A stretch of 20,000 bases of DNA, from assembly GCA_008632985.1 (NCBI GenBank), contig QPGO01000204.1, positions 113,248 to 133,247 on the forward strand, given 5' to 3'. Shown here piece after piece: positions 1 through 20,000 of the stretch; position 1 is the first letter of the stretch, and every line of letters starts with the position of its first letter. The position numbers and the translations under genes were made by a program. Below the pieces are notes generated by a model. It made no database searches and was not told the DNA's origin. It saw nothing but the letters and a program-made list of their open reading frames with translations. The stretch comes from Psammoneis japonica (taxonomy: Eukaryota).

Positions 1-1050
1 TTGTCTGTTTGTGAGACAACATAGAGCGCACATGTGACGGTTGCGACCATGCGCGACATGTGGCTTGACAACTGCAGACATGTCTGTGGCCAGTCAAATG
101 CCAATCATTGGCATTTCCTGGAAAGATGTGGCTTGTCTGTCTGCCACAACAGCCCAATTTTGGCGGAAAGTGGCGGTTTGTTGCATGTGACAACCAAGGC
201 AAGCACAACAATTGGTGTTTGAAGGTCAATGCGTGTAGTTCACATGAAGGTCTAACAGCCCTGATGGGGGCTGGACACACTCATGTGTTTTTGGGGGTGC
301 TCAGAGGCTTCGCAAAACAACACGGGCAAAGCACAGGGAAATTTGAAAATCACGAGCCATTTAAAAGAACAGCAATGGGAGTGAAAATGCAGAATGAAGT
401 TGGCGTGCGGTTCAAGAAAAAAAGTCAAACACAAATCCCTCTGGCAATGGCATGAGACAAATGATGCGGTTGCAGCCCTGCGAACAGGGTGTGGCAGAAG
501 ATCATGCGATCAGTCGGTCAACGCGCCGCTTTGCAGCAATGCGCACCAGAGATAAAAGGTCAAGGAAAAATTGCACCAGAATGAGATCATTGCTTTCTTT
601 TGGAGAGGATTTAATGCACCCAAACCGCCACAGCAAGGACAATCACGTTAAGTGGAGAATTCAAAGTCAGTGCAACCTCTGAGAGAAAATCTTTGCCTCT
701 GAGGGAGAATCTTGTCTTCAACAAAGACTGACAGAATTTCACAATTGCATGGACCAGAACAACAGCATGCAGTTCACTGCTTGGAACAGTGATCTTGGTG
801 GGCCAGCAAGTGGAAAAGGGAATGTTCAGGACTTGCAAGGATGAAACAGGAAGTTGTGCTGATGTGACAAGAAGGTCGTTGGAAGAAATGTCATTCTCGT
901 GTAGAATTGACACTGAATCTTGCACAGAAAAGCCAATCCACGCAGCAAAAGGACGGTCGTCAGGTGATGCCAATGGTTCACCACAACAGGGACTGTGCTT
1001 TCACCACATGCACAAAGGAGACATGTTAGAAGCCATGCAAAGATAAAGTG

Positions 1051-1156
1051 GTGAGTTTGTGTTATGATTTTGCTCACAGTTGTTGACTCATCTTGAAATC
1101 TGTGTCTCAGATGTTCTCACTGCTTACACCCTCCCGTCTCTTTTGGCCTTCTACAG
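1051..1156 (+). other. Putative intron of a degraded host gene in the left flank
   Basis: GTGAGT donor, pyrimidine-rich 3' end, CTACAG acceptor, 106 bp. Confidence 0.45.
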
Positions 1157-1727
1157 CAACTGGCTTACAATCACCTGCCAGCATGGCAGTTTTTGGTGAT
1201 TGATGAACTGTGCAACAAACATTGGGTGTGTTGCCCTGACCATGGCAACGAACAAGGAGAGCCAGCATTCAATGTGTGGCTGGCTCGATCGAGCCGAGAG
1301 AAAGGATCAACATGTCCAATTGCAGGGTTCTGTTGTGGTGTGCTCAAAACGTCCCAACAAAAGATTCATTTTACAGTGTTGGATGGCCTTGGGAGTCGTT
1401 CATGCCGACAACCGCAATGGCTGCGAAACGATGGAGAGTGCCAGCTCTAGGAACAGCCAGGTCTGCTCTAGAGAGGCGCGCAGCCCATCATGCGGCAGTC
1501 TGTGTCCCGCGCCCCGGTGCGTGCTTGAAGACAATGGACAAAGCATGCCAACAACAACAAAAATGGCGAGAACGAAGAACCATCGATCATCGTTTGTGCG
1601 ATGGCGCACACGCACACACAAGAGCAGCAATTGCACCTGGAGAGCATCTAAAAACAACATTGGAAACATGTGGTAAGTTGACAACGCTCTGACTTTCAGT
1701 GACAATGCCATTTTTGAAGTTGCACCC

Positions 1728-1732
1728 CTCAA
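1728..1732 (+). repeat. Target-site duplication CTCAA (left copy; right copy 9153-9157)
   Basis: Identical 5-mer immediately flanking both LTR ends. Confidence 0.93.
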
Positions 1733-1987
1733 TGTCAATGTTCTGGGTTTCAATCGGAACTCGTGCGCGATCTCATGCGCGTCTCTGCTTCAAGACACAC
1801 ACCAAGACTGGCTCTTGTGTGCTGCAGTTTTTCATTCGATTTTCTCCTCACAATTTCAAGATGACAACAGTGCAACAACACCTTTTTTTTGGTCTCATCA
1901 CCTTGATCTGCCTCTGCCCAGCCAGATCAACCTCTCTTCGACCTCTTCACGTCGAAATCCCAATTGCTCCGTTCCTGAGTCATTGCA
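1733..1987 (+). repeat. 5' LTR (255 bp, contains no TpA)
   Basis: TGTCAA...TTGCA; aligns end to end with 8892-9152 (about 27 substitutions, one 7-bp and one 1-bp indel). Confidence 0.96.
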
Positions 1988-2000
1988 GGTTATGAGCCCA
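1988..2000 (+). other. Primer-binding site complementary to the anticodon arm of initiator tRNA-Met (half-tRNA priming)
   Basis: GGTTATGAGCCCA directly after the 5' LTR, complementary to GGGCUCAUAACC; same type as the Drosophila copia PBS GGTTATGGGCCCAG. Confidence 0.85.
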
Positions 2001-2115
2001 AGTGTCATGCTTGCGACTCTGCCGCATTGCGCCATCGTTTCCTCAAGAAGCGAATTCTCACCCCAGCACATCTAGGTGCATTTCCATGCACCACGTCGAC
2101 ACATTTCAGACGCTC

Positions 2116-2601
2116 ATGACAGAGACGCCATCTCTGGCAATGGACGAACTCATCACTCAACCAAACAACCTTCAGCTTCAGAGTGCTGAACTCCTGCGAC
2201 AAATCGAGGAAGAACGAGAATGGCCAGCCCACAATCCTCCTCCGACTGCCCCTTGAGAAGACACTTCAAGGGGAGAACTCACCACCCAAGACTTTCACGC
2301 AGGAGACCGCGTGTGCATCACGAACGAAATCCGTGGTGTCCGGTTCAGACAAGCAAACGTCCAAGACCGCCAGGCCACAGTCACTCAAATCACTGCCAAA
2401 CACGTCTTCGTACGCACGGACAACGGCAGCACAACAAATTGTCATCCAAAGAACCTTGTTTTCCTTGCCCAATCTCAAGATGACTACGAACGCTGCTCCA
2501 GTCTCTGCTCCCGACTCTGCCAAGACAGGGACGACTCCTCCTCCTTCGGTTGCGCAGACCAAGCTTGGCCAGGCCACTCCAACGACGACCGTCACGATTA
2601 A
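2116..2601 (+). pseudogene. Extra ORF upstream of gag (about 161 codons; N-terminal helix plus putative KOW/SH3-like beta domain), one in-frame TGA
   Basis: Track ORFs 2002-2256 and 2311-2601 share a frame and are split only by TGA 2254-2256 (likely CGA->TGA): MDELITQPNNLQLQSAELLRQIEEE...DFHAGDRVCITNEIRG...ATVTQITAKHVFVRTDNG...PKNL. Confidence 0.6.
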
Positions 2602-4027
2602 CGGCCGCACTGTTCAAGTTCGGAAACAGCCAGAAAACTCACTCTCAGATGACCTCAGCCCTGCACACGAAGAAGCAGAGGGAGACGCTTGCTCCAGACA
2701 AGCTCAACGACATCTTCTCTCATGCCACAGCACCCAAGCAGCAAACCAAATTTGACCTTCTTGACATCAACATCGCCGATCCTGACAAGTCAGAGGACAC
2801 CTGCGACTTCTCCATGTCGATCCAGACCATGCGCGCAAATCACATCAAGTGCAACATGGACGACATTTTCCAGGTCGTCGATCATGTCACCCTCAAGACT
2901 CGCAACTTGCACACCAACTGTTCGACTGTCACCGTTGCTGAAGTCACTGCGAGCAACAAGTGGCACTCCACCATGCTCGACAACCCGATGGCAAGTGGGC
3001 TTCTCAGAATCTGAACCTCACCTGTGATTGCGCCATCAAGCACGCTTCTCCACCTTTGACCAAGAAAGTCAACGAGACTTGCCTGCGTCATTCTAACGAA
3101 GAGCGCGGTGGACCGCTCCACTTCATCATCATGATGAAACTCCTTCAGAGCGACTCTGAAGAAGCCGCACTTTATCTCGTCAAGCTGCTCTCATTGATCA
3201 AAATCACCGATTTTGATGGCAAAGACATCAGCAAGGTTGTCTCGCTCATCCGTGGTGGTGTTTCTCGCCTCGAGAATCTCAAGGACCCCACCGGCAAGAC
3301 TTGCATCCCAACCGATTTTCTTGCTCAGCTGACAAAGGTCTTCCAGACTTCCAGCATGGCCAAATTCAACGGACTCTTTGATCATCTCTCCAAAAAGTCC
3401 AAACTCAAGAAGTTTGTTTCTGTGGCTGCTTCAACTTCTGCTTCTGTGCCTGTCGAATCGATTGCGAACCTCCTTGACATTGCCGAGCGCAAATGTCATG
3501 CTCTGTGCGCACGCGACAAGTGGTCCGGCGTGACCACCAAGGCCAATGCCTCCTCCTTTGTCGCGAGCATCCTCAGCAAGTGCTTTGGTTGCGGCACCGA
3601 AGGATGCTCTGTGGACAAGTGTCCCAAGCCTTGCGATGAAGCTCGCATCAAGGCCAACAAGAAGCTTTGTTTCGACACCAAGCACAACAAGTCCAAAGCC
3701 GCCTCACCGGGCAAGCCTGCCAAACAGCCCCCAGCGAAGTGGAAGCCTCCGACCGACGAGGAACGCAAGAACAAGAATCGCCGTGACATCGACGGCAAGG
3801 ATTGCTTTTGCCATTTCAAGACCAAACGTTGGAAGCCTGTCAGCGCCAACGTCGCTGCGCCGCCTCCTGCATCAGCTCCTCCAGCTCTTCCGACACCTCC
3901 TGCAGCTCCGACACCGGGTGCCGATGCTCGTGTCGCCGCCACTGAGGCAGCAAAGGAGCTCGCCATCGCTGACGCGACTCAGGCCATGCAAGACACCTTC
4001 CGTGGTCTCCTGGGCGCCTTCACTTGA
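2480..4027 (+). pseudogene. gag: gag, frameshifted
   Basis: ATG 2480 (MTTNAAP), frameshifts near 2660 and 2985; zinc-knuckle-like CFGCGTEGCSVDKC, basic/Pro-Ala-rich C-terminus, TGA 4025-4027; lies between PBS and pol. Confidence 0.8.
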
Positions 4028-4989
4028 CTTCCCGGGCGCGCCACTGCCCTGCTCCCCACTTGGCACACAGCCCACCCTCAACCACCCGATCCTGGAAGGG
4101 ACACCCAGGTTTGGCTCCATTGTTTGTGTCTGTGGTTTGTTGTTTCGTTTCTTCAAGAGGGTGATTTCGGACATTGCGTGCCATCTGACTGTTTTCAGCT
4201 GTTGTCTCCAGCAGTCATGGGATTGTCTTTCACATGCTGTTCTTTGCAAAGAAACCCACAATGCTGCACTTCTCCAAGCAACCTGCACACGCTGACTTCA
4301 TCTTCGAGCCAACCCCACAACCTGCTTCACCAACTCCAAATCGCCGACTGCCTCGAGCGAAGCAGCATCCACTGCATTTGTGTCATGCGGCGTCCTGTCC
4401 TGCATCCAACAAGGACTCCTCCAGTCTGTCTCTGGAAACCCTGGACTTGGACGTTCAAGCGCAGGACTCCAGCTCCTCCTCGAAATCTGGATCCCGAACC
4501 AGACAATCCCTCAAGACGTCTCACATTGCGCCATCGCCGACACTCAAGACGCTACAAGCGCCCAAGAGGGCACTGCTCCAATCGCTCCTGTCGGAACCCT
4601 CAATGTGAAAACCAGATCTTCATGCAAGGATTCAAACAACTGGTCCTCTGAACCAGATGACAATCCTGGCAACAAAGAATTCGCCCGCATTCGTCATCGA
4701 TTGCTCCATCAATCATGGATCATGCATGATCTACAATTTGGCATCAATCTGGACTCTTTTGTCAAGTCCATTGACCCACTGCGACAGCTCTGTTGCTGGA
4801 GAATCTTGACTGCTCCTGAAGTCCTCGAATCCATCAACAATCGCGATCCGTTTTGCTGTCTCACCACCACCTTGAGCAACAACGAGCGCCAAATTGTCAC
4901 CTCACCTCAGTTTGGTGGAATTGCCATGTTTTCAAAACAGGCAAAACACATTCAGACCGCTGGAACACCAAGGAAGAAAGAACATTTTC

Positions 4990-7900
4990 AAGCTTGCCTT
5001 TCTTCCACAAAAACGGACACTCCAATCATCCCAGATGCCGGCGCTTCATCCTCTTTAACCCCGCACATCTCACCAACTTCATTGGACCTCTTGAACCAGC
5101 TTCGCATGCCGAGATCAAGGGCCTTGCATCCAGTGCCCGCGTTGTTGGAAAAGGCACCGTCAAATGGGACATTGTCGACTGCTGGAACGTCACTCGCACC
5201 GTTCGGACAACTGCCTGTCACGTCCCTGACTGCTCAATCAGACTCTTCAGTCCTCAAACCCATTTCCAAGAGAATGAGAACAATGGATGCTGCCACATCT
5301 GTGGCAACAAGTCCATCCTCGAGCTGGCAAATGGCAACAAACTTGAGTTCCCCTGCAATGCTGGGAATGACTTGCCTCTCATGCTCACTGCTCATCCTTT
5401 CAAAGGCGGCATTGACTCCTGTCATGTTGCCCCACTTTTGGATTCTAACTGTTCATTTTTGTCAGTTGCTGCTCAGACAAATCAGAACATGACACCAGCT
5501 CAAAAGGAGCTCCTTCTCCTTCACCAGAAATTCGGACATGCTGGATTCCAGTGGATCCAATGCCTTTGCAAGATTCCCTGGAGTGAACAGCACAGCCAAG
5601 TGCTCAAGCCGCGAAACCCAACAACCAATTCATGCGATGCACCTCTCTGTGCAGCTTGCCAACTGGCAAAGCAACAACGACGCAATCCCGACCATCGCAG
5701 CACATCCAAACCTCAAGAAATGACCCTTCGTTCCAAGGATCTTTGCCCCGGACAAGGTGTCTCCATTGACCAGTGCATCAGCCATCTCCCTGGCTGCTTG
5801 CCCAAGTCAAAAGGAAAGGAAGCCCCAAGAACAAGTGCAATGGCGGCACACTTTTTGTCGACCATGCATCGGGCTACGTCCATGTCAACCATCAAGTTGG
5901 ACTCACTGCTGGCGAGATGCTTCATGCCAAGCAACGCTTTGAACAGCACTGCAACACCTTTGGAGTCCAGGTGCAGCACTGCCATGCTGACAACGCATCC
6001 TTCGGTTCCAAGGCATTCCAAAGTCACATCAATGACAACGGGCAGAAACTCACCTTTTCTGGCGTTGGAGCTCATCATCAAAATGGGGTTTCCGAGCGTG
6101 CACACAAACCATGACCTCATGGGGTCGAGCTCTGTTGCTCACGCCATCCTCATGTGGCCTGATCAAGCCAATCTCGAACTGTGGCCTTTCGCCATGGAAC
6201 ACGCCGCTTGCATTTGGAATCATTTGCCCCGTCAAGATTCCCGACTTGCTCCTGTCGAGATTTTCTCCGGCCAACGCTTGTGTGGGGTTGTCCCGCGTAC
6301 GTTCTCGACCCGAAACTACAAGACAACAAAAAGATCCCAAAGTGGAACGCACGATCTTGTCGTGGACAGCATCTGGGCGTCTCCTCAGATCACTCCATTG
6401 GCATCGGACGGATCCTGAATCCAAACACCGGTTTCACAAGTCCACAGCATCACGTGGTCCATGATGACCATTTTGCTTCAGTCCCAAATGCTGATTCCGG
6501 CGGCATCTTTCACAATGCTCCGTTTGACGCTGGATCCTTCTGACAATCCAAGACACGGCCAACCATGCCTCCACGATCATTGGTTGACTGCGCGCGAACG
6601 TGCGCATCGCAACTGCCACCGCCAGTGACAAAAAGCCAACAAATCCGCTGCCAAGAATGCCCAACCCGCCACCCAGGACATTTCTGACTCCTCTTCTGTC
6701 TCTGCTCCAGAGGAGTGACAACACCAAAACATCAAACTGACGATGATGCAGTGGACGTGGGAGCATTCACTCCAGAGGGAGCCAAACCTCCAGAGGAAGA
6801 GACAGACTCTCTGCCTCCACCGGAACCACCGGATGACAACGAGTTGTCTCTTGTGGATCATTTTGATCTGCCAGACGACGATGATGCCGTCGCAAGCAAC
6901 AACACGCCACAGCCATCACCTCCACTGCAAGATGTGCAACCACGACGACCACTCAGAGTGGCCGCACAAGTGGAAACCGTCACGTTTTATCAAATCGATG
7001 ATGGCTCACATGTCCTTCCCAAACACTGAGTCTCCACAAGCTCACAAGAACCCGAAACGGACGGTCAAGGCTGAATCCTCTGAACCAGCAATTCTTGATG
7101 TCCTTGCAATGGGAAAAGATCACTCACACTCTCCAATCTCGTGACCTCAGTGCAATGTTCAACATTCTGCGTGCCAATGCCGACATTGACCACAACACAG
7201 TTGAAGAATTTCACCCTTTGGCCTTCGCAGCAAAGGCAAACTCGGGGCTGACAACCCTGCTTGGGACCAAGCAATGAACGGACCAGACCGTGCAGCCCAT
7301 TTGAAGGCTTGCGACGTCAAACTGGATGCTTTGGCAAAAGGCAAAGACGCTTGGGATGTTGTGGATTGTGAAGATTGGATGAACGTCCTGCCATCTGCTT
7401 GGGCGTTCAAATGCAAACGATTTCCAGACAGTCGCATCAAGAAACACAAGGCTCGATTTTGTGTTCATGGCAACAAGCACTCGAAGGCATCGACCACTTT
7501 GACACCTTTGCTCCAGTGGCAAATTGGACAACTGTGCACCTCATGCTCATTCTGTCTCAAATCTTGCAACTCTCTACAAAACAGGTCGACTGTGTTACGG
7601 CTTTCGTACATGCTCCGATCGACAAGGACCCCGACTTCGACAAGTTGTCGCCAGAGGAACAAGCTCGTTCCGGCGTCTACGTTGAAATGCCTCGTGGCTT
7701 TGCGGAACCTGGGAAAGTCCCAAAGCTCAAGAAATCCGTCTGTGGACTCAAACAAGCACCGCGAAACTTCTTTTTGCACCTCAAGTCCAAACTAGAAGGT
7801 GCCGGATTCACCGCTCAAGACGACGTCGATCCGTGCCTCTTCATCTCGGACAAAGTCATCTGTCCAGTCTACGTCGATGACACCCTCTTCTTCTCTCCCA

Positions 7901-8864
7901 AGCAAGAGCACATCGATGAAGTCATTGAAAAGATTCGCCTTTCTGGACTCGCCATCGAAGAAGAAGACTCAGTCGCGGGATTTCTCGGCGTGCACGTCAA
8001 GCGCGACACCGATTCAGGTGCTGTCAAGCTCACCCAGAGCGGCCTGGCCCGCCGTGTCGTGGAAGCCCTGAACATGCCTCATCTCCCAAAGAAATGTGCA
8101 CCAGCAACTGCCACTCCACTCATTCAAGATGCCGACGGCGACCCTCCTGCAGGCGCCTGTGACCATGCAAGCGTCATTGGCATGTTGCAGCATCTCGCCG
8201 GCCACTCTCGGCCGGACATCTCGTGTGCAGTGAGTTCCGCTGCCCGCTTTGTTCACTCACCTGAACGCTCGCACGAAATTGCTTTAGAGCGGATTGGACA
8301 ATGTCTCAAAGGGACCCTCGACGAAGGTCTCATTTTGCGCCCAACCGGAAATCTCGATGTCGACGCACACGTCGATTCTGACTTCGCCGGTCTGTGGCCA
8401 CACGAAGACAAGCAAGACCCTGCGTGTGTCAAGAGCCGCTCATTTGTGTCTCCAACTGTCCCATCATCTGGACAAGTAAACTCGCTCCCGAAATCGCACT
8501 CTTGACGATGGAAGCCAAGCACAACGCTCTGTCCTTCTGTGTGAAGAGCGTTCTTCCGTTTCAACGCGCCGTGTGCTGCATCTCTGAGTGCACCGGCATT
8601 GGCACCTGCATGTCTGCCACCTTCAAGACTGCTGTCTGGGAGGACAATGCCGGAGCTCTGACTCTCGCGAACATGGAACCTGGTCGGATCACTCCGCGAT
8701 CCAAGCACTGTGCTGTCAAGTGCCGCTGGCTCCGGTCCCATCTCAAGCCCAACGATGTCACTGTCCAGAAGATCTCTACCGATCTGCAAAGGGCAGATTG
8801 CCTAACCAAAGGGCTTACAAGGGACGCATTCGAGTCCATTCGCAAACTACTCTGTGGATGGTAA
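4990..8864 (+). pseudogene. pol: pol (protease, integrase, reverse transcriptase, RNase H), multiply frameshifted
   Basis: PR IIPDAGAS (~5025-5050); HHCC LHQKFGH...CAACQLAK; IN core SIDQ/ADN/HHQNGVSERA, WGCPAYVL; RT KARFCV, FAPV, GLKQAPR, VYVDD (7867-7881), SRPDI; RH DSDFAG, WEDNAGA, QRADCLTK; stop 8862-8864. Confidence 0.95.
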
Positions 8865-8882
8865 TTGATCTCTCACTCGTTC

Positions 8883-8891
8883 GAGAGGGAG
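8883..8891 (+). other. Polypurine tract
   Basis: GAGAGGGAG immediately before the 3' LTR. Confidence 0.88.
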
Positions 8892-9152
8892 TGTCAACAT
8901 TCCGGGTTTCAATCCGAACTCGTGCGCGATCTCGCGCGTATCTCTACTTCAAGATACACATCAAGACTATCTCTTACGTACTACAGTTTTTCATTCGATT
9001 TTCTCCTCACAATTCACAATTTCAAGATAATAACAGTGTAACAACACCTTTTTTCAGTCTTATCACCTTGATCTGCCTCTACCTAGCCAGATCAACCTCT
9101 CTTCGACCTCTTCACGTCGAAATCCCAATTGCTCCGTTCCTGAGTTATCGCA
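8892..9152 (+). repeat. 3' LTR (261 bp, 14 TpA)
   Basis: TGTCAA...TCGCA, preceded by the PPT and followed by TSD CTCAA. Confidence 0.96.
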
Positions 9153-9859
9153 CTCAACATGCTTTCATCGGTTGCTGCTGCAGACGAATTCTGGCGACGC
9201 TTCCAAAGGTCCTGCATCGAATTTGCGTCTCCTCTACCAGCTGCCACAGTCAATCACGGGTATGTTTTGCAGTTCCAATGGAGAATTCGCTGCTGCTTGT
9301 CAAGTAGTAACGCCGTCACCAACATTGGTACCGTCGGCGGCAACCAGCAGTAGCCTGTATGGCTCTGCTTGTCTTGTCATGCGGGTTTATGCCATTGCAA
9401 CGAGTTTGTTCATGGTCTTTACTACAATGGTTTGAACCATTGCTAACGAGCGGAGCAGGATTGGGGAAAAACTAATGGTCAATTTCTCAAAGTATTGAAA
9501 GGGGACGTGAAGAGGGATCGAGACGCAGACACATGAACAGGCGGTTTCAGAGCAGTTAAATTTGTTTGTTCGATTGCAATGGCGGCCAAAAATACACGAG
9601 GCCCGAAAGGAACGTTCAAAGACGAAATCGAGGGGAAAAAGGGTGCCGTAGTAGCCTCGATGATGCACGAATGTCTACCACAAACAGCTGGACTCGAAGG
9701 CAGCATGGTTAAGTATCATATATGGAGAAAATTGTGTCATGCTTCTCTACTGGCACCGGTAATTTGGATAATGCTCAATCCGAGTAAGAAAATGGCGATG
9801 AATTCGACGAGAGCTTGCCAAGAATATTCCCCTCTCCAAGTTTGAATGGAAGTTACGTT

Positions 9860-10708
9860 ATGTGGCGAAGAAGGGAACTGCTTTCGGTCGACTCTTTTGC
9901 TTTACTTTAAGATACCGTACGACACCAGTGACGAGCATTGTCTGAATCGAATGGTGATGATGTAATGTACGGGTGTTTCTCGCACGTCCCGTGGCGAGAA
10001 TAATCCATACTTAAACTGTAAGCTTGGTCTCAAATATGGGAATCTCAGTTTGGGTATGAGAAAGTTTGCAAAATGCAGGCCTCAGCGAGAAAAGGGAAAA
10101 GGCTGGGGGCTCGTTGCCGTCAACGGTGCAGAATGGGGTGAGCTCATTCAGGAGTACACTGGTTAAGTTATCGACGAAGAAAGAACGAAGAAACGCCTTG
10201 AAGCATGGGCTAGAGACCGTCCAAACGACGCCATTTTCTACGTGATGTATCTTGACACCGGCTGGTACATTGATGCGAGCAATGAGGCCAACAGAGTTGA
10301 TTCGTTAATCATTCGTTTGATCCAACCTGCAAACTGGTCCGAGTCAATGTTGGAGGGTACTTGCACGTTGCCATCAAATCCTGTATGAACATTGTTCCTG
10401 GAGAATTTCTGATTTACGACTACCAGTTTGATACAAGGGATATTTACAAGTTTCTCTGTAGATGCGGTGCTGCTAAACGTCAAGGCACCTTGGTGGGAAA
10501 GGAGTTCCAAGATTGTGCCGAGCAGAAAACAAAGGGACAGGAATGAGGAGGTGCGAGGGTACGCTTGTACCGCGACAAGACATTTCTTGAGGACCTTAAG
10601 AGACACGCAGCACACAGACGTTTGCATGTTTCAGATCTTGTGCCGTGTACTACCAAGACGAGACCGTTGCGAGTGGACCGCAAGATTGCGATCGAGAGTT
10701 TGCAGTGA
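9860..10708 (+). pseudogene. AWS-SET-postSET histone lysine methyltransferase (Set2/NSD/ASH1-like, H3K36 class) pseudogene
   Basis: CLNRMVMM*CT...GKGWGLVA...ELIQEYTG*VID...FYVMYLDTGWYIDA...FVNHSFDPTC...GEFLIYDYQF...FLCRCGAAK; TAA at 9963-9965 and 10164-10166, frameshift ~10295, TGA 10544-10546. Confidence 0.9.
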
Positions 10709-11008
10709 AAAGCAGGCTGTTCTTGTGTCGTAATGTCGTTCTGGGGGCTGACTTCTCGGCAAGGTGCTTATCACTGGAGAAAGCTTGCAAAAAGTCTTGA
10801 TATACATGAAACAATGAAGCGATAGGCATCTTTTCTCTCTTCGAAAGGGCGTCTTAGTGGAGGTTCTTGTGAACACTCCCTGTACCGAGTGTTTTGTACA
10901 TTCAGAAAAGTTGAATGTGCTCTGTATCCTTATCTTCTACATACTGGTGGCGCGATTGGAGGTGACGCTGCTTCTTGGGATGGTACAGTAGTGATAGATA
11001 CCTGGAGT

Positions 11009-11228
11009 GGCGGCGGCGGTTGCGGCGTACCATAACGAAGAAGAAGTTGGGATGGACCTGCTGCTGCTAACCTTGGACCTTCTGCTGCTAACCTTGGACC
11101 TACGAAAGTAATATAGTAATTTGTGGTGATGCTTGGCGGCGGCGGCGGAGCATAACGAAGAAGAGGAATTTGGGATGGACCTGCTGCTGCTAACTTTGGA
11201 TCTACGAAAGTAATTGGTGGTGATGCTT
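11009..11228. repeat. Imperfect tandem repeat (about 126 + 94 bp units, internal 21-bp duplication); also in copy 2 (~14494-14713)
   Basis: GGCGGCGGCGG...CATAACGAAGAAGA...GGGATGGACCTGCTGCTGCTAAC...TACGAAAGTAAT...GTGGTGATGCTT occurs twice. Confidence 0.85.
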
Positions 11229-11730
11229 ATGGGCCACGAAGCATTGCAGAGCATAATAGACCTGGACCAAGAATACACGGTGACGACACGTACGGCCCTG
11301 CTTCTCTAGCATTCTAGGAACCCCTGTGGATACCCGAGATGGTCTGGACACGTATTGAGCATGGGCCTGGACCTTACGCACGCCGAAGTGTTGGGAACAC
11401 GTACGGACCCGGGCGTGGAATGAGTGCAGATCGATTTCGCCTCCTAGACTAAGTGAGGTGATTCGTACGGACCATCACAGCCACACGCACCTCGTGTCCT
11501 ACCACACACTCATACGGTTTGGTGTAAGGTATGCTCTCTAGAACAAAAATCCCGAGCTTACTGCCGCTGCTCGCTCTTGCGATCGCAGCTTCTCTTGCAT
11601 TATGTGGTACTCGTACAGAAGGGCGAGTAGCGATACCACAGAATTCAAAATCACCTTGCTACCTGTCTCTATTTTAGCAAATTACAAAAATAGTATAAGT
11701 ACAAGTGCTACAAGTGCCGCACATTTTGAC

Positions 11731-11850
11731 TTTCCCGAATATTGCATGTCGTATTTCCTGAATAATGCATGTCGTATTTTCCGAATACTACATCTTGCAT
11801 TCCCAAAGGTTTTTCGTTGCATTCCCCGAACATTGCACGGTGCATTCCCC
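11731..11850. repeat. Degenerate ~23-bp tandem array (about 5 units); also at ~15224-15343
   Basis: TTTCCCGAATATTGCATGTCGTA / TTTCCTGAATAATGCATGTCGTA / TTTTCCGAATACTACATCTTGCA / TTCCCAAAGGTTTTTCGTTGCA / TTCCCCGAACATTGCACGGTGCA. Confidence 0.75.
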
Positions 11851-13474
11851 TTTCCCAAACACATCACATGGTCATTGTTGCTCATGATGCCCGAGCCTCC
11901 CTGGCTGCCACCCATGACATGGACAACATTGTTGAGCACCTGCAGGTAAAGTGCATCCGTCGCCTTGGTCCTGTCGCAACCACCTGATCGACTCAGAATG
12001 CCAAGAAATTATAGAGGAGGGGTTGTTCAAGGAATTAGAGAGCCCGTCTATGTAACAAAGGAAGCTGCTATGGGCAATACAAGGAAACAAAAGAGCAATT
12101 CAAGGACGTGAGGACCCGCAAGCATGTGGACTCAGACTTCTGTGAATCTTGCACCTGTAGCCAAATCGATGCAAAGCACAGTTGCACCCCTCGTTTGTAA
12201 CTCAAAGGGGCTTTATCGAGTCCCTCATACCATCATAATCGAAATGTAACTATGACCAGTAGAGAACAGATGTTGATGCGAGTGTTTTCTCGGCATGCTG
12301 GGGTTTGCCAGTTCAATCTGTCGTGGCATGTTGCCTCTCCTCGAGGTCGTGGCATGTAGCTCCTAGTCGCAATTAACCATTAACAGCACTAGACTATATT
12401 ACTTTGTCAAATTACTCATTGATAAACCCATTCTCACCATTGCAGCAATGATTTCTAGCGCTTGGAGCCTTGCAGAGAGAACCACCTGCACACACCAAGT
12501 TCCGGATCAATCCTGCTTTCGGGCCTCAATGTCACTAATTGTGTTTGTTGACTTTTGACATTGCTTATATTCAATGCACTCCTATGTGTTAGATGCTTCC
12601 TGGACTATTGTAAAGTATTCAATCTATATTGATAACGAACTACGCATCTTTCCGTGCATGCAAAACGATGGAAACAGGTGTCCGACAAAAGGGTTCCGGC
12701 CAGCTATCGTCATTTACCTGTCGCTGGCAGCATTTTCTACAGTTTGATCCCGATCTTAGAAACATTGACCGTTTAAAAACGCCTCTTTGCAGACAATATG
12801 AACAATTTAAGCCGTGCTCCGAATCGATTTGGTTGGAGCTAGCACGTTCGTGGGATCCGAGGTGGAACTGCTTGAGGCTCCTCAGAAACTCGCATGGACT
12901 TTTGACACCTGATAACCACCCAGGATCGTCTCACTTAGTCATATAGGGAGGCGTTTGAGCCATTAATTGAAACTTTTGGATGGTTTAACACAGGCATTGA
13001 GTCGATTTGATTGTCGCAAATGATCGTGACAAGCAAGAATTGCCGCGCTTGCTTTTGTTTTTGACACGGAAAACACTGCCAAAGAAAGAGCTTATCCCTT
13101 TAAAAGTCATCTTTATCGAGTATATCGTCCATGACATGGGTACCTACATAATGCATTACATTTTAGACCTCCAAAACATTTGCTGTCGTGCCGGATGCAG
13201 AGGAAACAAAGAAATTGAGTGAAAAGTTCAGATGATGATCAAAGGCATTGAATGAAGATAACATGCTTTATTACCCATACCTTATGATCATAATGAGGTT
13301 TAAACATACTCTCCAGGTGATTCTTACACTTGGTGTTAAATATTGCCGCCGCCGCAACCGATCCCATGGTCGACTTCAGTTGCGTCGCGTGTCGCGTTTT
13401 GGAAAGAAGAAGTTGATTTTATGGGTTATGAGCGTTTTAGTCGAAACGCGCGGACGTGGCCCAAAAGCATCGTG

Positions 13475-13529
13475 ATTGTCCCATAATTGTCCCATAATTG
13501 TCCCATAATTGTCCCACAATTGTCCCACA
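13475..13529. repeat. 11-bp minisatellite x5
   Basis: (ATTGTCCCATA)3(ATTGTCCCACA)2. Confidence 0.95.
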
Positions 13530-13665
13530 CCCTCCATGCCGAATGCCGACACGCCGACACCGAGATAAAGAGTAATTTGAGAAATGCCCAAGTCACGACC
13601 ACAACGAGGATTCAAAGGTCAGGTGAGCCAATCATACCACTCAACCCTTGTTCCTGCCAACAAAA

Positions 13666-14194
13666 AAAGAACGAAGAAACGCCTTGAAGCATGGGCTAGA
13701 GACCGTCCAAACGACGCCATTTTCTACGTGATGTATCTTGACACCGGCTGGTACATTGATGCGAGCAATGAGGCCAACAGAGTTGATTCGTTAATCATTC
13801 GTTTGATCCAACCTGCAAACTGGTCCGAGTCAATGTTGGAGGGTACTTGCACGTTGCCATCAAATCCTGTATGAACATTGTTCCTGGAGAATTTCTGATT
13901 TACGACTACCAGTTTGATACAAGGGATATTTACAAGTTTCTCTGTAGATGCGGTGCTGCTAAACGTCAAGGCACCTTGGTGGGAAAGGAGTTCCAAGATT
14001 GTGCCGAGCAGAAAACAAAGGGACAGGAACGAGGAGGTGCGAGGGTACGCTTGTACCGCGACAAGACATTTCTTGAGGACCTTAAGAGACACGCAGCACA
14101 CAGACATTTGCATGTTTCAGATCTTGTGCCGTGTACTACCAAGACGAGACCGTTGCGAGTGGACCGCAAGATTGCGATCGAGAGTTTGCAGTGA
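13666..14194 (+). pseudogene. Duplicated C-terminal fragment of the SET-postSET pseudogene
   Basis: FYVMYLDTGWYIDA..., GEFLIYDYQF...CRCGA; same frameshift as copy 1, but CGA where copy 1 has TGA. Confidence 0.85.
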
Positions 14195-15357
14195 AAAGCA
14201 GGCTGTTCTTGTGTCGTAATGTCGTTCTGGGGGCTGACTTCTCGGCAAGGTGCTTATCACTGGAGAAAGCTTGCAAAAAGTCTTGATATACATGAAACAA
14301 TGAAGCGATAGGCATCTTTTCTCTCTTCGAAAGGCGTCTTAGTGGAGGTTCTTGTGAACACTCCCTGTACCGAGTGTTTTGTACATTCAGAAAAGTTGAA
14401 TGTGCTCTGTATCCTTATCTTCTACATACTGGTGGCGCGATTGGAGGTGACGCTGCTTCTTGGGATGGTACAGTAGTGATAGATACCTGGAGTGGCGGCG
14501 GCGGTTGCGGCGTACCATAACGAAGAAGAAGTTGGGATGGACCTGCTGCTGCTAACCTTGGACCTTCTGCTGCTAACCTTGGACCTACGAAAGTAATATA
14601 GTAATTTGTGGTGATGCTTGGCGGCGGCGGCGGAGCATAACGAAGAAGAGGAATTTGGGATGGACCTGCTGCTGCTAACTTTGGATCTACGAAAGTAATT
14701 GGTGGTGATGCTTATGGGCCACGAAGCATTGCAGAGCATAATAGACCTGGACCAAGAATACACGGTGACGACACGTACGGCCCTGCTTCTCTAGCATTCT
14801 AGGAACCCCTGTGGATACCCGAGATGGTCTGGACACGTATTGAGCATGGGCCTGGACCTTACGCACACCGAAATGTTGGGAACACGTAGGGCCCTACGGA
14901 CCCGGGCGTGGAATGAGTGCAGATCGATTTCGCCTCCTAGACTAAGTGAGGTGATTCGTACGGACCATCACAGCCACACGCACCTCGTGTCCTACCACAC
15001 ACTCATACGGTTTGGTGTAAGGTATGCTCTCTAGAACAAAAATCCCGAGCTTACTGCCACTGCTCGCTCTTGCGATCGCAGCTTCTCTTGCATTATGTGG
15101 TACTCGTACAGAAGGGCGAGTAGCGATACCACAGAATTCAAAATCACCTTGCTACCTGTCTCTATTTTAGCAAATTACAAAAATAGTATAAGTACAAGTG
15201 CTACAAGTGCCGCACATTTTGACTTTCCCGAATATTGCATGTCGTATTTCCTGAATAATGCATGTCGTATTTTCCGAATACTACATCTTGCATTCCCAAA
15301 GGTTTTTCGTTGCATTCCCCGAACATTGCACGGTGCATTCCCCTTTCCCAAACACAT
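13666..15357 (+). repeat. Direct segmental duplication, copy 2 (1692 bp)
   Basis: Matches 10180-11864 (offset 3486 to 3493). Confidence 0.97.
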
Positions 15358-15383
15358 TGAGGACGAGTCGTATCGATTCGAAA

Positions 15384-16552
15384 TCAAGGCAAAGGGAGTC
15401 CGGCCTTCTTGCGTTGGGAACGAGTCATACGGGCCGGAGTCTCGGCAGCCTTCTTGCGCGGGGTCTCGAACGCAGTATCACCTGCAACAGTGACCTTCTT
15501 CTCGGGGGTGACATCGGTGCTGGGCTCTGGGGTAGTAGCGCCATTCGCCACATTTTCCTTGGCCGCGGTGGCGCCGCTGTCCTTCTTGCTCCAGCTCATA
15601 CGACGAGGCCACCAAGAGCCGCCATTGGCAGTTCCGTCCTTGTTGGCAACGTTGGTTCCTTCCGAGACGGCAGCGACGGTAGACGTCTTCTCCTTCTTTT
15701 TCTCCTTCTTATCTACTTTGAGTTGAAGAAGCCCGCTGGCAACAGAGAAACAGAATCGACGTTGTGAGCACAACAAAGGACAATGGACTGTGGAGGCTGG
15801 CATGGCACTTACAGCTCTTCAGTGATCACCGCCTCTTTCTTTTTTGTCTGTAGACTTTCCATCCGAGCTTCAATGAGATCTTTCTCTGCGGCCTTTTCAT
15901 CCCTGATGAGGCTGACATGCAAGTCGGTCCCCTTCTGGGCTTGTGCCGCAAAGACAGACGCAGAGTCGAGGTGCTTCTGCTCATTTTCCACGAGCTTCTC
16001 GCGCAGCTCTTTGTTTTCCTTCGCATTTTGCACGGAGACTTTAGCCATCTCTCGCATCAAATCATTGTTGGCCTTGAGCTCTGGTTTCGCGTCTTTCCGA
16101 CGACCGACCGCGTTGAGGTTGGCCTCGATCAAGAGAGCTTCCGTCTGCTTCTGCAACTCAGCCTCCGTGGCAAGTCTATCCTTCTTGAGCTTCATTTTCG
16201 CAAGCTTGGTGTCGGTGTCGTCGGAGGCTGCACTCTCCGGGGTACCATCAGCATCATGGTTGGTGGCAGCTATGGCGGCCGCCTTGGGCCCCGGCGTGAC
16301 GACCTTGGCGGGAAGAGAAGGCATGCACTTGTCACGAGCAACCTTCCAGCGGGGCTTGCTCTTGGATAGCCATCTTCCCACCTTCGCTTCCTCGCCCGGA
16401 AATTCATCGTGGAGCTCAGGAATCATCGCATACAATTCCGACGCTGGGAAGCCGGGCACGAAGATGTAATCCAACTCTCCACGAATGGCGGGATCGACCA
16501 CTAACCTGCGCATCGTAGGGTTCTTAGAGTATTTACAGGATGAAGTACTCAT
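15384..16552 (-). CDS. Two-exon hypothetical protein, about 363 aa, central coiled coil and Lys-rich C-terminus; join(16552-15813, 15735-15384)
   Basis: ATG 16552 (MSTSSCKY); 77-bp intron 15812-15736 with GTAAGT donor and CCAG acceptor joins ORFs 15809-16648 and 15384-15803 in frame (EEL|GLLQLKV); 1092 nt, no internal stop. Confidence 0.82.
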
Positions 16553-16699
16553 CTTGGAGATAGATACAGTGATCGTAGTCGTAGGAACCGAAAGAGCAGG
16601 GACCGAAAGAGCAACAACGTTTGATACGCCGCAACAATGACAGGTCATCGAGGACTCGTTTTCGATCGTTCCATCTCCCGAGCGCCGGCCTCGGCGACG

Positions 16700-16930
16700 T
16701 TATTTTTGAACAGAATATGAAGAAATATTAATGAAGTGAGTATAATGATATGGAAATCAAGCTGGCCGGATGATTTATATATTAGTCCCTTTCGGTTGTA
16801 TATGGATTTTGAATTATTTGTAAACCTTCATGGTACAAGGATTGAAAAATAACATTATCTATGGACTCTAAGGTAGTTTAATTATGAATATTGCAGTAAA
16901 GCTTCCTATAAGAAATCACGTAGGTAGACA
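16700..16930. promoter_or_regulatory. AT-rich intergenic region between divergent genes (possible bidirectional promoter)
   Basis: AT/TA-rich stretch between ATG 16552 (-) and ATG 17042 (+); position-based inference only. Confidence 0.35.
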
Positions 16931-17041
16931 AGCTACTCAGATACACGCATCGATCGAGAACGGCACGACTATCAACGGAAAAAACAAATATTGGAACCTG
17001 CGCGCGACACGCCCCATGCATCCCATCCGAATCCATTCACA

Positions 17042-17570
17042 ATGTCACTTCTGGAAGTGCTGCGACGACGGAAAATGACGACGACACCCGGCGCTGTGCC
17101 TCCTCAGATCCTATCTGCGTTGGAGGAGCTTCGCACACCCTCGAGCTACTTCAATTCAGAAGAAGCAGCAGCCGATCTTGTCTTGTTCTGCGCATGTGAG
17201 GACGAAATCTCTCAGTCGCTCACCGAAGCCGGATTTCTTGAGACAATCATTGGTGCAATGGATCACGATGGGCAAAGCAACTCCTTTTGCTTGTGTGTCA
17301 TTCATGTGCTCAGCAAATTTGTGCAGTCAAAGGAGGACAATGCAGAAGAAATCCTTGGAAAGAAAGGCGGTCTCAAAAGAACAGTTTGTCTGATGGACAC
17401 ATTTGAGGAGAGAGTCTGACAAAGACATTCAAATGCTGGGAGTTTTGTGCCTCTTTCATCTCACAAAAGAAACCAGAGGAAAAAGCATGGTTGAAATGGT
17501 GGCAAGCATCATGGAGTGCATTGCCACAGCCACAGAAACTCACAAAGACCCTGTCTTGATTGCTGGTTTT
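17042..17570 (+). pseudogene. Armadillo/ARM-like helical-repeat protein, decaying toward its 3' end
   Basis: MSLLEVLRRRK...EAGFLETIIGAMDH...VIHVLSKFV...GGLKRTVCLMDTF, frameshift ~17410, then SDKDIQMLGVLCLFHL; ARM-like GG/AG-hydrophobic helix pattern. Confidence 0.55.
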
Positions 17571-20000
17571 GGTCTTTGTTTTTGTTTTTGTTTCATGATC
17601 ATTGCTTCAATGCTTCGGTGCAAAAGACATCTTGAGTTTTGCCTCTTGAGCCACCCACTTGATGTTGAGGTTTCTGCAAAGAACTGCTTGTGCTGTGGCT
17701 GGTTGAAAGGTTGCCCACACTCTTGTGGCTCACAGCTTGAGGCATGATGGAGTCAGCAGTTCTCTGTGCTTGACCTTTGCCCATCAGACTCGCTGTCACA
17801 ATGTGCCTTCTCCTGTTGACACCATTGTCTCCATCAAAGTCCAGAGTCCAGACTGCCCCAGCCATTGGCAAAACAGGAGCTTCTGTGGAACTTTTCTGCC
17901 TGCTTCACTGCCACAAAGCAGCTCTTGGCAACAATGCCACCCCCACATCATGCCTGGCTGCAGCAAAGGACTGTCTTCCAAGCTGCCATCTGAGATGCCC
18001 AACTTGGGTTTGTGCTGAACTCTTCACTCTTCCCGTCACAAAAACAAGGTGTTTCTGGTTCTGATGGCAATGTGCTGGAGCCTTCCTGCACAGCTTCCCA
18101 GGTGCACACCAGTGCCTCCAGAGTGCCAGCCCAGCCACAACAGCTGCACCATCTTTGCTGGGGCTTTGCCAGCAGGTCGCTGTGCCAAGGCTGCCACAGT
18201 CTTGGACAACAGCAAGTCAAAGCCGATGCAGCCATGACAGTGCTTTGTGGTGCCATCAGCATGGAGTGGTGTGAGCTTGCTGGACTGCCCGACCCTGCAT
18301 GCCACATCCCCTTGCAGTTGAGTGCCAACCTGAGAGACACAGTCATGAAGAATCCCTGCCCAAGCCAAAGCTGGAGCTGGCATGTGAGCCCCTGTTGGCA
18401 CCCCATGCTGCACTGCTGCAAAATGGCACAAGCTTCCTGAAGCTTGCTTGTGTTGGTGCTGCTGCCATGGGCCAACTTGTCAACACACCACTCTGCCCCC
18501 CAACACAAGCAAGATGGTGCGCACTTTTCTGCAGCTCTGGCTGGGATGACAGATGTGCACTCCAAGCAAACTGCAGTGCATGCTCCCAAACAACAGCCCG
18601 TTGAAGGTGCTTCTCATGTCTCTGGCTGATGCCAGCCTGTGGTTGGCTGTCAAAAAAGCAGGGGTCAAGAAGGACAGATCATCAGCTGCAGGAGAGCATG
18701 AGTTCCCTGCCATGTGCTCAGCAACAAGGCACTGGCACATTGGAAGCACCACAGTTGTGTGGGTGTGGGTGGGGGGGCATGACACCACTTGCAAGTGTGG
18801 CTGCTCAGGTCAAGTGACCCACCTGAGACATGTGCGCATCCACAAACGGCTGGGAAATGCTGCTGGCAAGAAGGGCCTCTTGGAGGTGCAGCCACCCTTG
18901 GTCACAAAGAAGCTTGCAAAACTCTGGCTCTGGCTGTGTGTTTAAAAAGTGAAAAAGCTTTGAGTGAAGTTTGGTTTGAGAGTCATCAAGCATGCAAATG
19001 ACAGCTGCTTCCTGCACAGCAGACTGCTGCCTCTCATTTTTTCTCAAGAGCTTGCTCAGAATGCAGGGTCCAAAGCAAGCAGTCAAGCTGGCAAGTGTTT
19101 TCTTCTCCCCAGCCCTGTGCAAATGCAATGGCACAACTTGAACAGCCAAACTGTGCTGCCAGAGGAGCACACGTGGAGTTGGCAGCTGGCCTGGGGCTGC
19201 CAAGCTGGCAAGGTGCTCCGCTTGGTGGCGCACAGCACACTCAGTTGCTCTCACATTGTCACCCTGCAGCTGCACCATGCACACCCACCCTTTGAACCAG
19301 CAGCAACCACCCCAGTCAGTGAAGAAGATGCCAACAAATCTCTGGCCCTGCTTCTGTGGTTGATTTTGTGTGCGTTCTCAATGGCTTCAATCCCCTCCTT
19401 TTTCCTTCTTCCTTTTTCCCTTTGGTCTGGCCAGGAACATGAAAAAATTGCCAACAAAATTTGAACCATTCACAATTTTTGGCATGCAAACAAATGTGTC
19501 TTCAGAGCTGATGGTGACAAGAGGTGCTCACAATGAGACCCAATGGAGCAAGACAGATGCTCTGGTGCAAAAGCTTAAAAGATGATGGATCATTTCATGC
19601 AAGGCAAAAAGTCATCAGACATTGCAAGATGTTTGCAGCAGTGCTTGTGGTGGCAACTTTTGGTGGGTGGGTGTGCTTTGATGCTGCTTTTCAGTCTGGG
19701 GTTGGCTCTTGTCATCCTCTGGTCCAGCAGCTGCAGCTGCACATTGTCCCACACACAAGAAAGTCTTTCATGCTGAAGTGCTGCCAGCACAAGAAGCAGG
19801 TCTGACCGTCTGCAAGCACACAAAAAATCAAGCCCAGCTGCTGGCTGCCCGCCCCTCTCATCATCCAAGCAGACAAGGCATGAGGCTCTGTGTTTGGCAT
19901 CTCTTTTTGCCACCTTTCAAGAAGCCAGTGCCAGCATTGCACACATGTTGGAACACTCCGTTGGTTCTTTCAGGCACCAAGAAATGCCCATCATCTCCAG
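17150..20000. other. TpA- and CpG-depleted, TG/CA-rich hypermutated domain; original identity unrecognisable beyond ~17570
   Basis: Only 2 TA dinucleotides (18943, 19576) in about 2850 bp; under 20 CG in 17400-20000 by manual count. Confidence 0.9.

Follow-up and report, generated by a model that had tools for sequence, protein, structure and literature searches.

Two parts of the 20,000-nt window analyzed here (the whole stretch of contig QPGO01000204.1, numbered from its first letter) are nearly free of the dinucleotide TA when counts are made per kilobase, one running from position 1 to ~8770 and the other from 17148 to the end of the window. The first, which we term domain 1, consists of the left flank, the 5′ long terminal repeat (LTR), and the interior of a Ty1/copia retrotransposon. 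The second, domain 2, is the main subject of this report. It is poor in CG as well as in TA, and rich in TG and CA on both strands. Our reading, to which we give a probability of roughly 70%, is that domain 2 is nuclear DNA that underwent TA hypermutation plus CpG transition. Both kinds of change would keep the pyrimidine-purine (YR) step, and together they would collapse the four YR dinucleotides (TA, CG, TG, and CA) into TG and CA.

As for composition, our baseline is the normal middle of the window (9153-17147), i.e., the DNA that separates the two domains, in which the observed/expected (o/e) ratio is 0.68 for TA and 0.94 for CG. At these ratios, 116.4 TA are expected in domain 2 (17148-20000) and 2 are observed (Poisson P ~2e-47). 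These two, at 18943 and 19576, each lie within a TTAAAA and are the sole TA past 17147. Similarly, 163 CG are expected in the core of the domain (17371-20000) and 17 are observed (Poisson P ~2e-48), the count past 17400 being 17 as well. TG and CA reach 117/kb and 115/kb, compared with 78/kb and 66/kb in the normal middle, and are balanced between the strands (328 TG vs. 323 CA). The preliminary description of this DNA, in which TA and CG were said to collapse into TG/CA from 17150 on, is borne out by these counts, TG and CA being up by the missing amount. The sum of the YR steps, on the other hand, is essentially constant, with 239/kb in the domain 2 core, 236.5/kb in copia, 251/kb in the left flank, and 244/kb in normal DNA, which is as predicted if the changes were transitions limited to YR steps. 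The same core is low in AT steps (40/kb) and high in GC steps (92/kb), its top enriched trinucleotide is TGC/GCA (o/e 2.48), and GCTG/CAGC and TGCA stand at 3.6-3.8.

The borders of the two depletions at the start of domain 2 do not coincide. The final TA of the normal DNA is at 17147, and CG density remains normal up to 17266 (7 CG in 119 nt) and becomes sparser only afterwards. Some 120 nt separate the border of TA loss (17147/17148) from that of CpG loss (after 17266).

The sequence of domain 2 is real and not an artefact of assembly. Of the sampled 31-mers of the window, 98% are present in the public run X1, which probably represents the source sample (runs X2 and X3 have next to none, and no RNA run containing them was listed). 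The contigs of X1 were assembled independently of the assembly from which the window comes. These read-derived contigs span 17265-19280 (depth 33.7) and 19265-19998 (depth 56.5) with 0 differences from the window and no TG/CA branching. Near 17148, two X1 contig variants are present at like depth (34 and 38), as in a diploid. The second of them (depth 34 of 72; 17148-17175) has TG where the window has TA at 17148, plus five other differences, and stretches of 88, 133, and 109 nt of domain 2 (17277-17366, 17947-18081, and 18249-18359) are missing from other X1 contigs. Such contigs indicate that alleles or paralogs of domain 2 exist; the exact 2-kb contig carries haplotype-level depth only (33.7). 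A short (GTTTTT)-like microsatellite at 17560-17603 was treated as a repeat and passed over in the comparison with reads.

What kind of change empties DNA of TA can be read directly in domain 1. The element at 1733-9152 is a Ty1/copia retrotransposon, as evidenced by LTRs with TG..CA ends, a 5-bp target-site duplication (TSD), and an RVT_2 domain (E 4e-22). The named relatives of its reverse transcriptase (RT) are from the pennate diatoms Seminavis, Cylindrotheca, and Nitzschia (54-58% identity), with unnamed marine records reaching up to 70%. Its two LTRs lie on either side of a domain border, and their identity is 86.6%, with 27 substitutions in 253 columns, of which merely 3 are neither TA- nor CG-type. 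Where the 3′ LTR has TA, the 5′ LTR has TG at 7 sites, CA at 6 sites, and CG at 1 site (2 substitutions). Five of the 15 CG in the 3′ LTR correspond to TG or CA in the 5′ LTR, and at 2 further sites (4 substitutions), for which either ancestor is possible, CA in the 3′ LTR faces TG in the 5′ LTR. TA has therefore changed at 14/14 sites and CG at 5/15 in the same LTR pair. Since the LTRs of one insertion differ, these changes came after integration. Once the element had integrated, TA was converted to TG/CA to saturation, with the two strands affected about equally, while CpG changed more slowly, about one third being lost in the meantime.

The direction of change is fixed by the RT codons. When the RT open reading frame (ORF) is compared with 40 homologs, the 8 conserved Tyr columns read Cys (TGT) in 3 cases, His (CAT/CAC) in 3, and Tyr in 2. 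Conserved Tyr residues are now Cys or His, which shows that TA was lost. In addition, Leu has become Pro (CCA) at two places. The LTR pair, the Tyr codons of domain 1, and the constant YR count all agree with the earlier proposal that TA and CG are funneled into TG/CA by transitions, and the composition of the copia interior (1988-8770) fits the accompanying statement that this region has lost TA yet keeps many CG (o/e 0.06 and 0.80, respectively).

Further details of the LTR pair concern the border and the order of changes. At 8898-8899 and 9055-9056, the 3′ LTR has CA, vs. TG at 1739-1740 and 1890-1891 in the 5′ LTR. This opposition fits an ancestral TA (or CG) that changed in opposite ways in the two copies, in which case the 3′ LTR was not wholly spared and the border is graded. 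The right border of domain 1 lies at ~8770-8890 and fades, TA being back at 8777, 8803, 8816, 8848, and 8862, and dense in the 3′ LTR. At 1780-1781, the 5′ LTR has CG where the 3′ LTR has TA (8939-8940). Such a double change makes a new CpG, which means that TA editing can feed the CpG pool. We also considered a flanking-base preference among the surviving TA, with CTAC/GTAG modestly enriched in copia (8/23 vs. 54/367, P 0.018) and ATAC/ATAT absent, and rejected it, because the sites are too few and the LTR kept none of its 3 cTAc sites unedited. The coding region of the element (1988-8890) is split over several frames, with a gag-like part at 2942-4027, integrase at 4820-6418, and RT at 7372-8505. 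The frame changes on both sides of RT. Quite apart from its TA edits, the element is dead.

An important implication of this arrangement is that the TA process is aimed at a stretch of chromosome. From the perfect TSD, CTCAA, it follows that the left flank, which is edited, and the right flank, which is normal, adjoined each other until the element inserted. The edited domain comprises the flank, the 5′ LTR, and the interior, and spares the 3′ LTR; it therefore matches neither the element nor its transcript. Nor is repeat homology the target, since the two LTRs are equally repeated yet differently affected. The window offers a second case in a direct duplication of 1.7 kb (10174-11864 and 13660-15357, ~3486 nt from start to start), which is 99% identical and of normal composition. 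The duplicates differ by 7 substitutions (4 CpG transitions and 0 TA-type), one 1-nt indel, and one 8-nt indel. Without any TA-type difference between them, duplication alone does not trigger editing. Each duplicate contains repeats spaced 123 nt, starting GGCGGCGG. The simplest target is a chromosomal (chromatin) domain, presumably in a silenced state. The features of the window are listed in Table 1.

Table 1. Features of the 20,000-nt window (positions counted from its first letter)
Feature	Coordinates	Strand	Basis
Domain 2, TA-free (2 TA), TG/CA excess on both strands; continues beyond the window	17148-20000		Dinucleotide counts; exact match in read-derived contigs
Domain 2 shore, 0 TA, CG o/e 0.67, CG density normal to 17266	17148-17370		Counts
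Domain 2 core, TA o/e 0.01, CG o/e 0.10, without period-3 signal or Pfam match	17371-20000		Counts; six read-through frames
ORF of 125 amino acids, armadillo-like repeat protein, begins in CpG-rich normal DNA and extends into domain 2	17042-17416	+	Similarity to protein P0122
Normal-composition DNA separating the two domains, TA o/e 0.68, CG o/e 0.94	9153-17147		Baseline
Left flank of copia, 19 TA (o/e 0.16), CG o/e 0.55, without Pfam match or period-3 signal	1-1732		Counts; six-frame Pfam scan
TSD CTCAA, perfect, 5 bp	1728-1732 (left copy), 9153-9157 (right copy)	+	Flank comparison
5′ LTR, 0 TA, within TA-free domain	1733-1987	+	LTR pair comparison
Copia internal region, TA o/e 0.06, CG o/e 0.80, frameshifted gag/integrase/RT; RVT_2 at 7372-8505	1988-8770	+	Counts; Pfam
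3′ LTR, 14 TA (o/e 0.66), mostly outside the edited domain, internal unedited reference	8892-9152	+	LTR pair comparison

As for the content of domain 2, it begins ~105 nt inside the armadillo (ARM)-like ORF at 17042-17416. The only Tyr codon of this ORF, TAC at 17147-17149, contains the last TA. An exhaustive HMMER search with the 125-residue translation returned 3 hits, P0122 being the one that was useful. The ORF is 29% identical to P0122 over 102 residues and aligns to it twice (pairwise E 1e-10 and 8e-06), and P0122 itself has weak Pfam matches that are ARM/ZER1-like. A weak ZER1-like continuation of the ORF is found in a different frame at ~17406-17552 (E 0.065). CG thins within the ORF and not at a sequence junction. 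No additional ARM-like unit was found in domain 2 by tblastn of the HMMER hits. Rfam and tRNA scans gave no match. The ORFs of 160-220 codons found in domain 2 are of the length expected by chance when TGA is the sole remaining stop.

To the left of this gene, on the minus strand, is an ORF of 296 codons (15809-16699), which has the strongest period-3 signal of the window (12.0). Neither a Pfam match nor a homolog (E 1e-3 or better) was found for it, and it resembles an orphan coding gene. It and the ARM-like ORF point away from each other on the two sides of a CpG-rich spacer. At the other end of the window, the left flank of copia (1-1732) gave nothing above noise in a six-frame read-through Pfam scan and shows no period-3 signal.

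The same TA-free state is present in public records other than the window. In a metagenome scan with an RT alignment, we recovered 79 related copia loci, in which several species are mixed. One of them, L041, a metagenomic copia fragment of 3085 nt, has 0 TA and 225 CG (o/e 0.92) at 57% G+C. Its RT frame runs for 451 codons with no stop and no Tyr, and all 6 of 6 conserved Tyr columns are changed (Cys in 5, His in 1). A second locus, L044, is partly affected, with o/e ratios of 0.21 for TA and 0.54 for CG, and Cys in 2/6 Tyr columns. In 9 control loci, Tyr is kept in 50/51 columns. A public ENA record, P0028, is a protein of 555 residues with 0 Tyr, the sole such case among 120 listed RT homologs. 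The YVDD box of P0028 reads VCVGG, which combines Tyr to Cys with Asp to Gly, an A to G change outside the TA context; the latter hints at broader A-to-G editing in that record. No unedited DNA relative (85% identity or more) of L041, L044, or the window copia was found among the 79 loci. The TA-erased state is thus one that recurs in independent public records.

How might domain 2 have come to its present state? In the scenario that we favor, a local, DNA-level hypermutation would have converted the A:T pair of TpA to G:C on either strand, TA becoming TG or CA until it was almost exhausted. This process would be the one seen in the adjacent copia, i.e., acting after integration, on both strands, and with borders independent of the element. 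In a second step, separate from the first, CpG would have been converted to TpG or CpA, most simply via deamination of 5-methylcytosine at sites that were presumably methylated. Within this mutational reading, we see about even odds that, in the first step, an ADAT2/TadA-type enzyme was recruited to silenced chromatin domains and deaminated the adenine of TpA in their DNA, the resulting inosine then being replicated as G. ADAT2/ADAT3, TadA, and the TadA-derived adenine base editors deaminate an A that follows U or T, as in TpA here, and this resemblance suggests their possible link to the locus. The outcome would be irreversible inactivation, with Tyr codons turned into Cys or His codons, and with TAA and TAG stops, TATA, and AATAAA signals gone.

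Several observations weigh against this reading. Domain 2 opens in a host-type ARM-repeat gene, with no obvious transposon or virus. A six-frame read-through Pfam scan of the domain gave nothing above noise, nothing being recognizable past ~17750, and the domain has no period-3 signal (0.2-2.1, vs. 7-12 for gag/RT of copia and for the ORF at 15600-16500). Within the window, neither a search with purine/pyrimidine 32-mers nor blastn turned up an unedited ancestor or paralog of the domain. Consequently, mutational loss of TA and CG in domain 2 is argued by analogy with domain 1 and from the YR-step count, and it is in this sense that domain 2 probably passed through the same changes as domain 1. 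We also simulated a saturating funnel of TA and CG on the normal middle and compared the product with domain 2. The simulation reproduces TG and CA (128 and 116/kb vs. 117 and 115/kb observed). However, it misses the AT step (66/kb vs. 40/kb) and the GC step (64/kb vs. 92/kb), reaches a G+C of 47% vs. the 51% observed, and likewise fails to reproduce the enrichment of TGC/GCA, GCTG/CAGC, and TGCA. Either the ancestral composition was different, CpG poverty was partly ancestral, or an additional bias was at work. As for the chemistry, TA is palindromic, and sequence therefore cannot separate A deamination from T-to-C chemistry.

Among the alternatives, the one that survives best accepts the TA collapse as hypermutation and takes the CpG poverty of domain 2 to be largely ancestral. 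The original DNA would have been AT-rich, CpG-poor, and TA-rich, with no second stage, much like the stretch at 16700-16899 just upstream of domain 2, which has 24 TA and 2 CG in 200 nt. Since no ancestor of domain 2 was found, its CpG poverty could indeed be partly ancestral. YR counts are blind to whether a given TG or CA derives from TA or from CG, the AT and GC steps and the G+C are not matched by the simulated double funnel, and L041 is a case of complete TA loss without CpG loss. Nevertheless, CpG transitions are common in this genome, as seen in the LTR pair and in 4 of the 7 substitutions between the 1.7-kb duplicates. Moreover, a CG o/e as low as that of the core over 2.6 kb is far under 0.72, the lowest value of any 1-kb bin in the normal middle, and CG fades inside the ARM-like ORF and not at a junction. 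We therefore regard a single-stage history as unlikely.

A second alternative, to which we give somewhat less credence still, retains the funnel and changes its chemistry. A TET/JBP-type dioxygenase would make 5-hydroxymethyluracil or 5-formyluracil at TpA, which mispairs with G, leading from T to C. TA being self-reverse-complementary, T to C at TpA would yield identical TG/CA products. Dinoflagellate DNA is known to carry 5-hydroxymethyluracil with a preference for TpA and TpC, and 5-formyluracil promotes mutation from T to C. Against this, we know of no such T modification in diatoms or chlorarachniophytes. Furthermore, the only published treatment of the signature, a preprint on the chlorarachniophyte Bigelowiella natans (Mettrop et al., bioRxiv 10.64898/2026.01.13.699255), proposes adenine deamination.

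It is very improbable that the pattern was produced by RNA-level A-to-I (adenosine-to-inosine) hyperediting by an ADAR-like enzyme before reverse transcription, or by a process resembling repeat-induced point mutation (RIP). A-to-G hyperedited retroelements are reported in animals (PMC4866542 and PMC3197674), and the Asp to Gly change in the YVDD box of P0028 is an A to G outside TA. For domain 1, however, both versions are already contradicted. Hyperediting is at odds with the difference between the LTRs of one insertion, which is post-integration, with the likeness of both strands (7 TG vs. 6 CA in the LTR pair, 3 Cys vs. 3 His in RT, and the TG and CA totals of domain 2), and with an edited flank beyond the element alongside a spared 3′ LTR. 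A RIP-like process would have to run in reverse, TA being lost and not gained, and the 99% duplicates are untouched.

Least credible of all is an artefact, be it from sequencing, from base modification, or from polishing of the assembly. Bases that carry a modification can be miscalled systematically, and X1, being perhaps the very sample behind the assembly, may not be an independent sample, but its contigs match domain 2 exactly, the same state is found in the unrelated records L041 and P0028, and the edits form a coherent pattern of codon changes.

Returning to the two-step reading of domain 2, we can ask whether its steps are coupled. The preliminary description had proposed that TA loss saturates first and CpG decay follows, as stages of one silencing-linked process for which CpG retention could serve as a clock. 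The order of loss finds support in the LTR pair (14/14 TA vs. 5/15 CG), and a series from L041 through copia to domain 2 fits it. The coupling did not fare as well. The left flank (TA 0.16, CG 0.55) and L044 (TA 0.21, CG 0.54) show less TA loss and more CG loss than copia and L041, and in domain 2 the border of TA loss does not fall where that of CG loss does. Nor is there the positive correlation between TA loss and CpG loss that the proposal called for, since TA o/e and CG o/e give a rho of -0.30 (P 0.0065) among the 79 loci and of -0.08 among 391 windows of 1 kb. All 12 of the 12 windows with a CG o/e <0.4 have normal TA, while 5/6 of those with a TA o/e <0.3 have a CG o/e of 0.82 or more. 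Since this sample mixes species, what it shows is limited to the presence of either depletion in the absence of the other, and it is no test of coupling within this genome. The clock is unsupported as it stands, given that CG o/e per kilobase varies between 0.53 and 0.98 along the one copia element, whose parts are all of the same age. Naive use of the LTR rate would make domain 2, with ~88% of its CpG lost, roughly five times as old as the insertion of copia, a figure that is no more than arithmetic on an assumption.

The literature on this signature reduces, as far as we could find, to the B. natans preprint (Mettrop et al.). In that work, two integrated viral regions of B. natans mutate ~1000× faster than the rest of the genome in mutation-accumulation lines, with 230/231 mutations in both regions being A to G or T to C. 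Those that are GC-biased are described as all on TpA. The preprint also reports 124 TpA-depleted, CpA+TpG-enriched clusters in the genome, and a low-TpA subset of coding sequences (TpA frequency 0.0018) enriched in reverse-transcriptase and DDE transposase domains. Its authors propose an ADAT2-like DNA adenine deaminase, for which the genome holds a candidate, and they cite reported DNA activity of amphioxus ADAT2.

Our window resembles B. natans in several respects. In both, A:T is replaced by G:C at TpA, giving TG or CA depending on the strand, which is seen in domain 1 and presumed in domain 2. In both, the change is confined to local domains beside normal DNA (with borders here at ~8770-8890 and 17147/17148), and loss of TpA goes with gain of CpA and TpG. 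RT or transposase genes are among the depleted coding sequences, and the 0.0018 TpA of the B. natans subset is comparable with the 0.7-3.4 TA/kb found here. There are also clear differences. B. natans is a chlorarachniophyte (Rhizaria), whereas the host here, judging by the named RT relatives, is probably a diatom (stramenopile) or a related ochrophyte, and is unlikely to be B. natans itself, in which event this would be the published case. The targets are integrated viral DNA in the former, while here they are an LTR retrotransposon together with the flank, and a region starting in a host-type ARM-repeat gene. Finally, the B. natans evidence consists of de novo mutations, unlike ours, which is historical and comes from an LTR pair and codons. 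The main text of the preprint has 0 occurrences of CpG, LTR, copia, retrotransposon, or diatom. Likewise, the terms RIP, dinucleotide, deamination, and point mutation are all absent from a paper on diatom retrotransposons (Maumus 2009, PMC2806351).

RIP in ascomycete fungi is another of the closest known systems. As in RIP, which is scored by TpA/CpA/TpG indices, dinucleotide-specific and near-saturating transitions wreck transposons in place and can spread to flanks. However, RIP turns CpA/TpG into TpA, while TA is lost here, and RIP needs duplication and mutates both copies, while here editing has spared a 3′ LTR and has not touched the 99% duplicates. The second step is like the CpG decay of methylated DNA, in which CG becomes TG or CA, as in the LTR pair (5/15) and between the 1.7-kb duplicates (4/7). 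CpG decay, unlike the TA loss described here, leaves TA untouched. CpG methylation is known from diatom transposons. The abstract of PMC4247016 states in general terms that diatoms display DNA methylation.

The signature of the window matches the TpA to TpG/CpA change on both strands of the B. natans domains, and so belongs to a known kind of process. It is best regarded as a new instance of TpA hypermutation, probably with a host lineage and targets that are new as well, overlaid by ordinary CpG decay. TpA-specific hypermutation of DNA first appeared in print with the 2026 preprint on one chlorarachniophyte. Our window suggests the same process in a second, ecologically dominant lineage, probably the diatoms, and on retrotransposons. 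Beyond the evidence in the preprint, it contributes an LTR pair that spans a domain border and records post-integration editing of both strands, the relative rates of TA and CpG loss, and a chromosomal domain as the target. There is also a practical side to these findings. Because TA-free domains lack TAA and TAG stops and Tyr codons, gene callers predict long false ORFs in them, as illustrated by L041, with no stop in 451 codons, and by P0028, which was deposited without Tyr. Homology searches, for their part, lose the ancestors of TA-erased sequence.

A broader idea, which we put forward tentatively and consider doubtful at present, is that of a defense by DNA adenine deamination, targeted to chromatin domains, that would be common to distant lineages of the stramenopile-alveolate-Rhizaria (SAR) group, namely diatoms and chlorarachniophytes. 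Such a "reverse RIP" would be saturating, would spread past element borders into flanks and host-type genes, and would have sharp borders near promoters. With CpG decay, it would lead to terminal silenced DNA that is free of both TA and CG. If this is true, silencing events could be dated genome-wide by how much TA relative to CG has been lost in LTR pairs.

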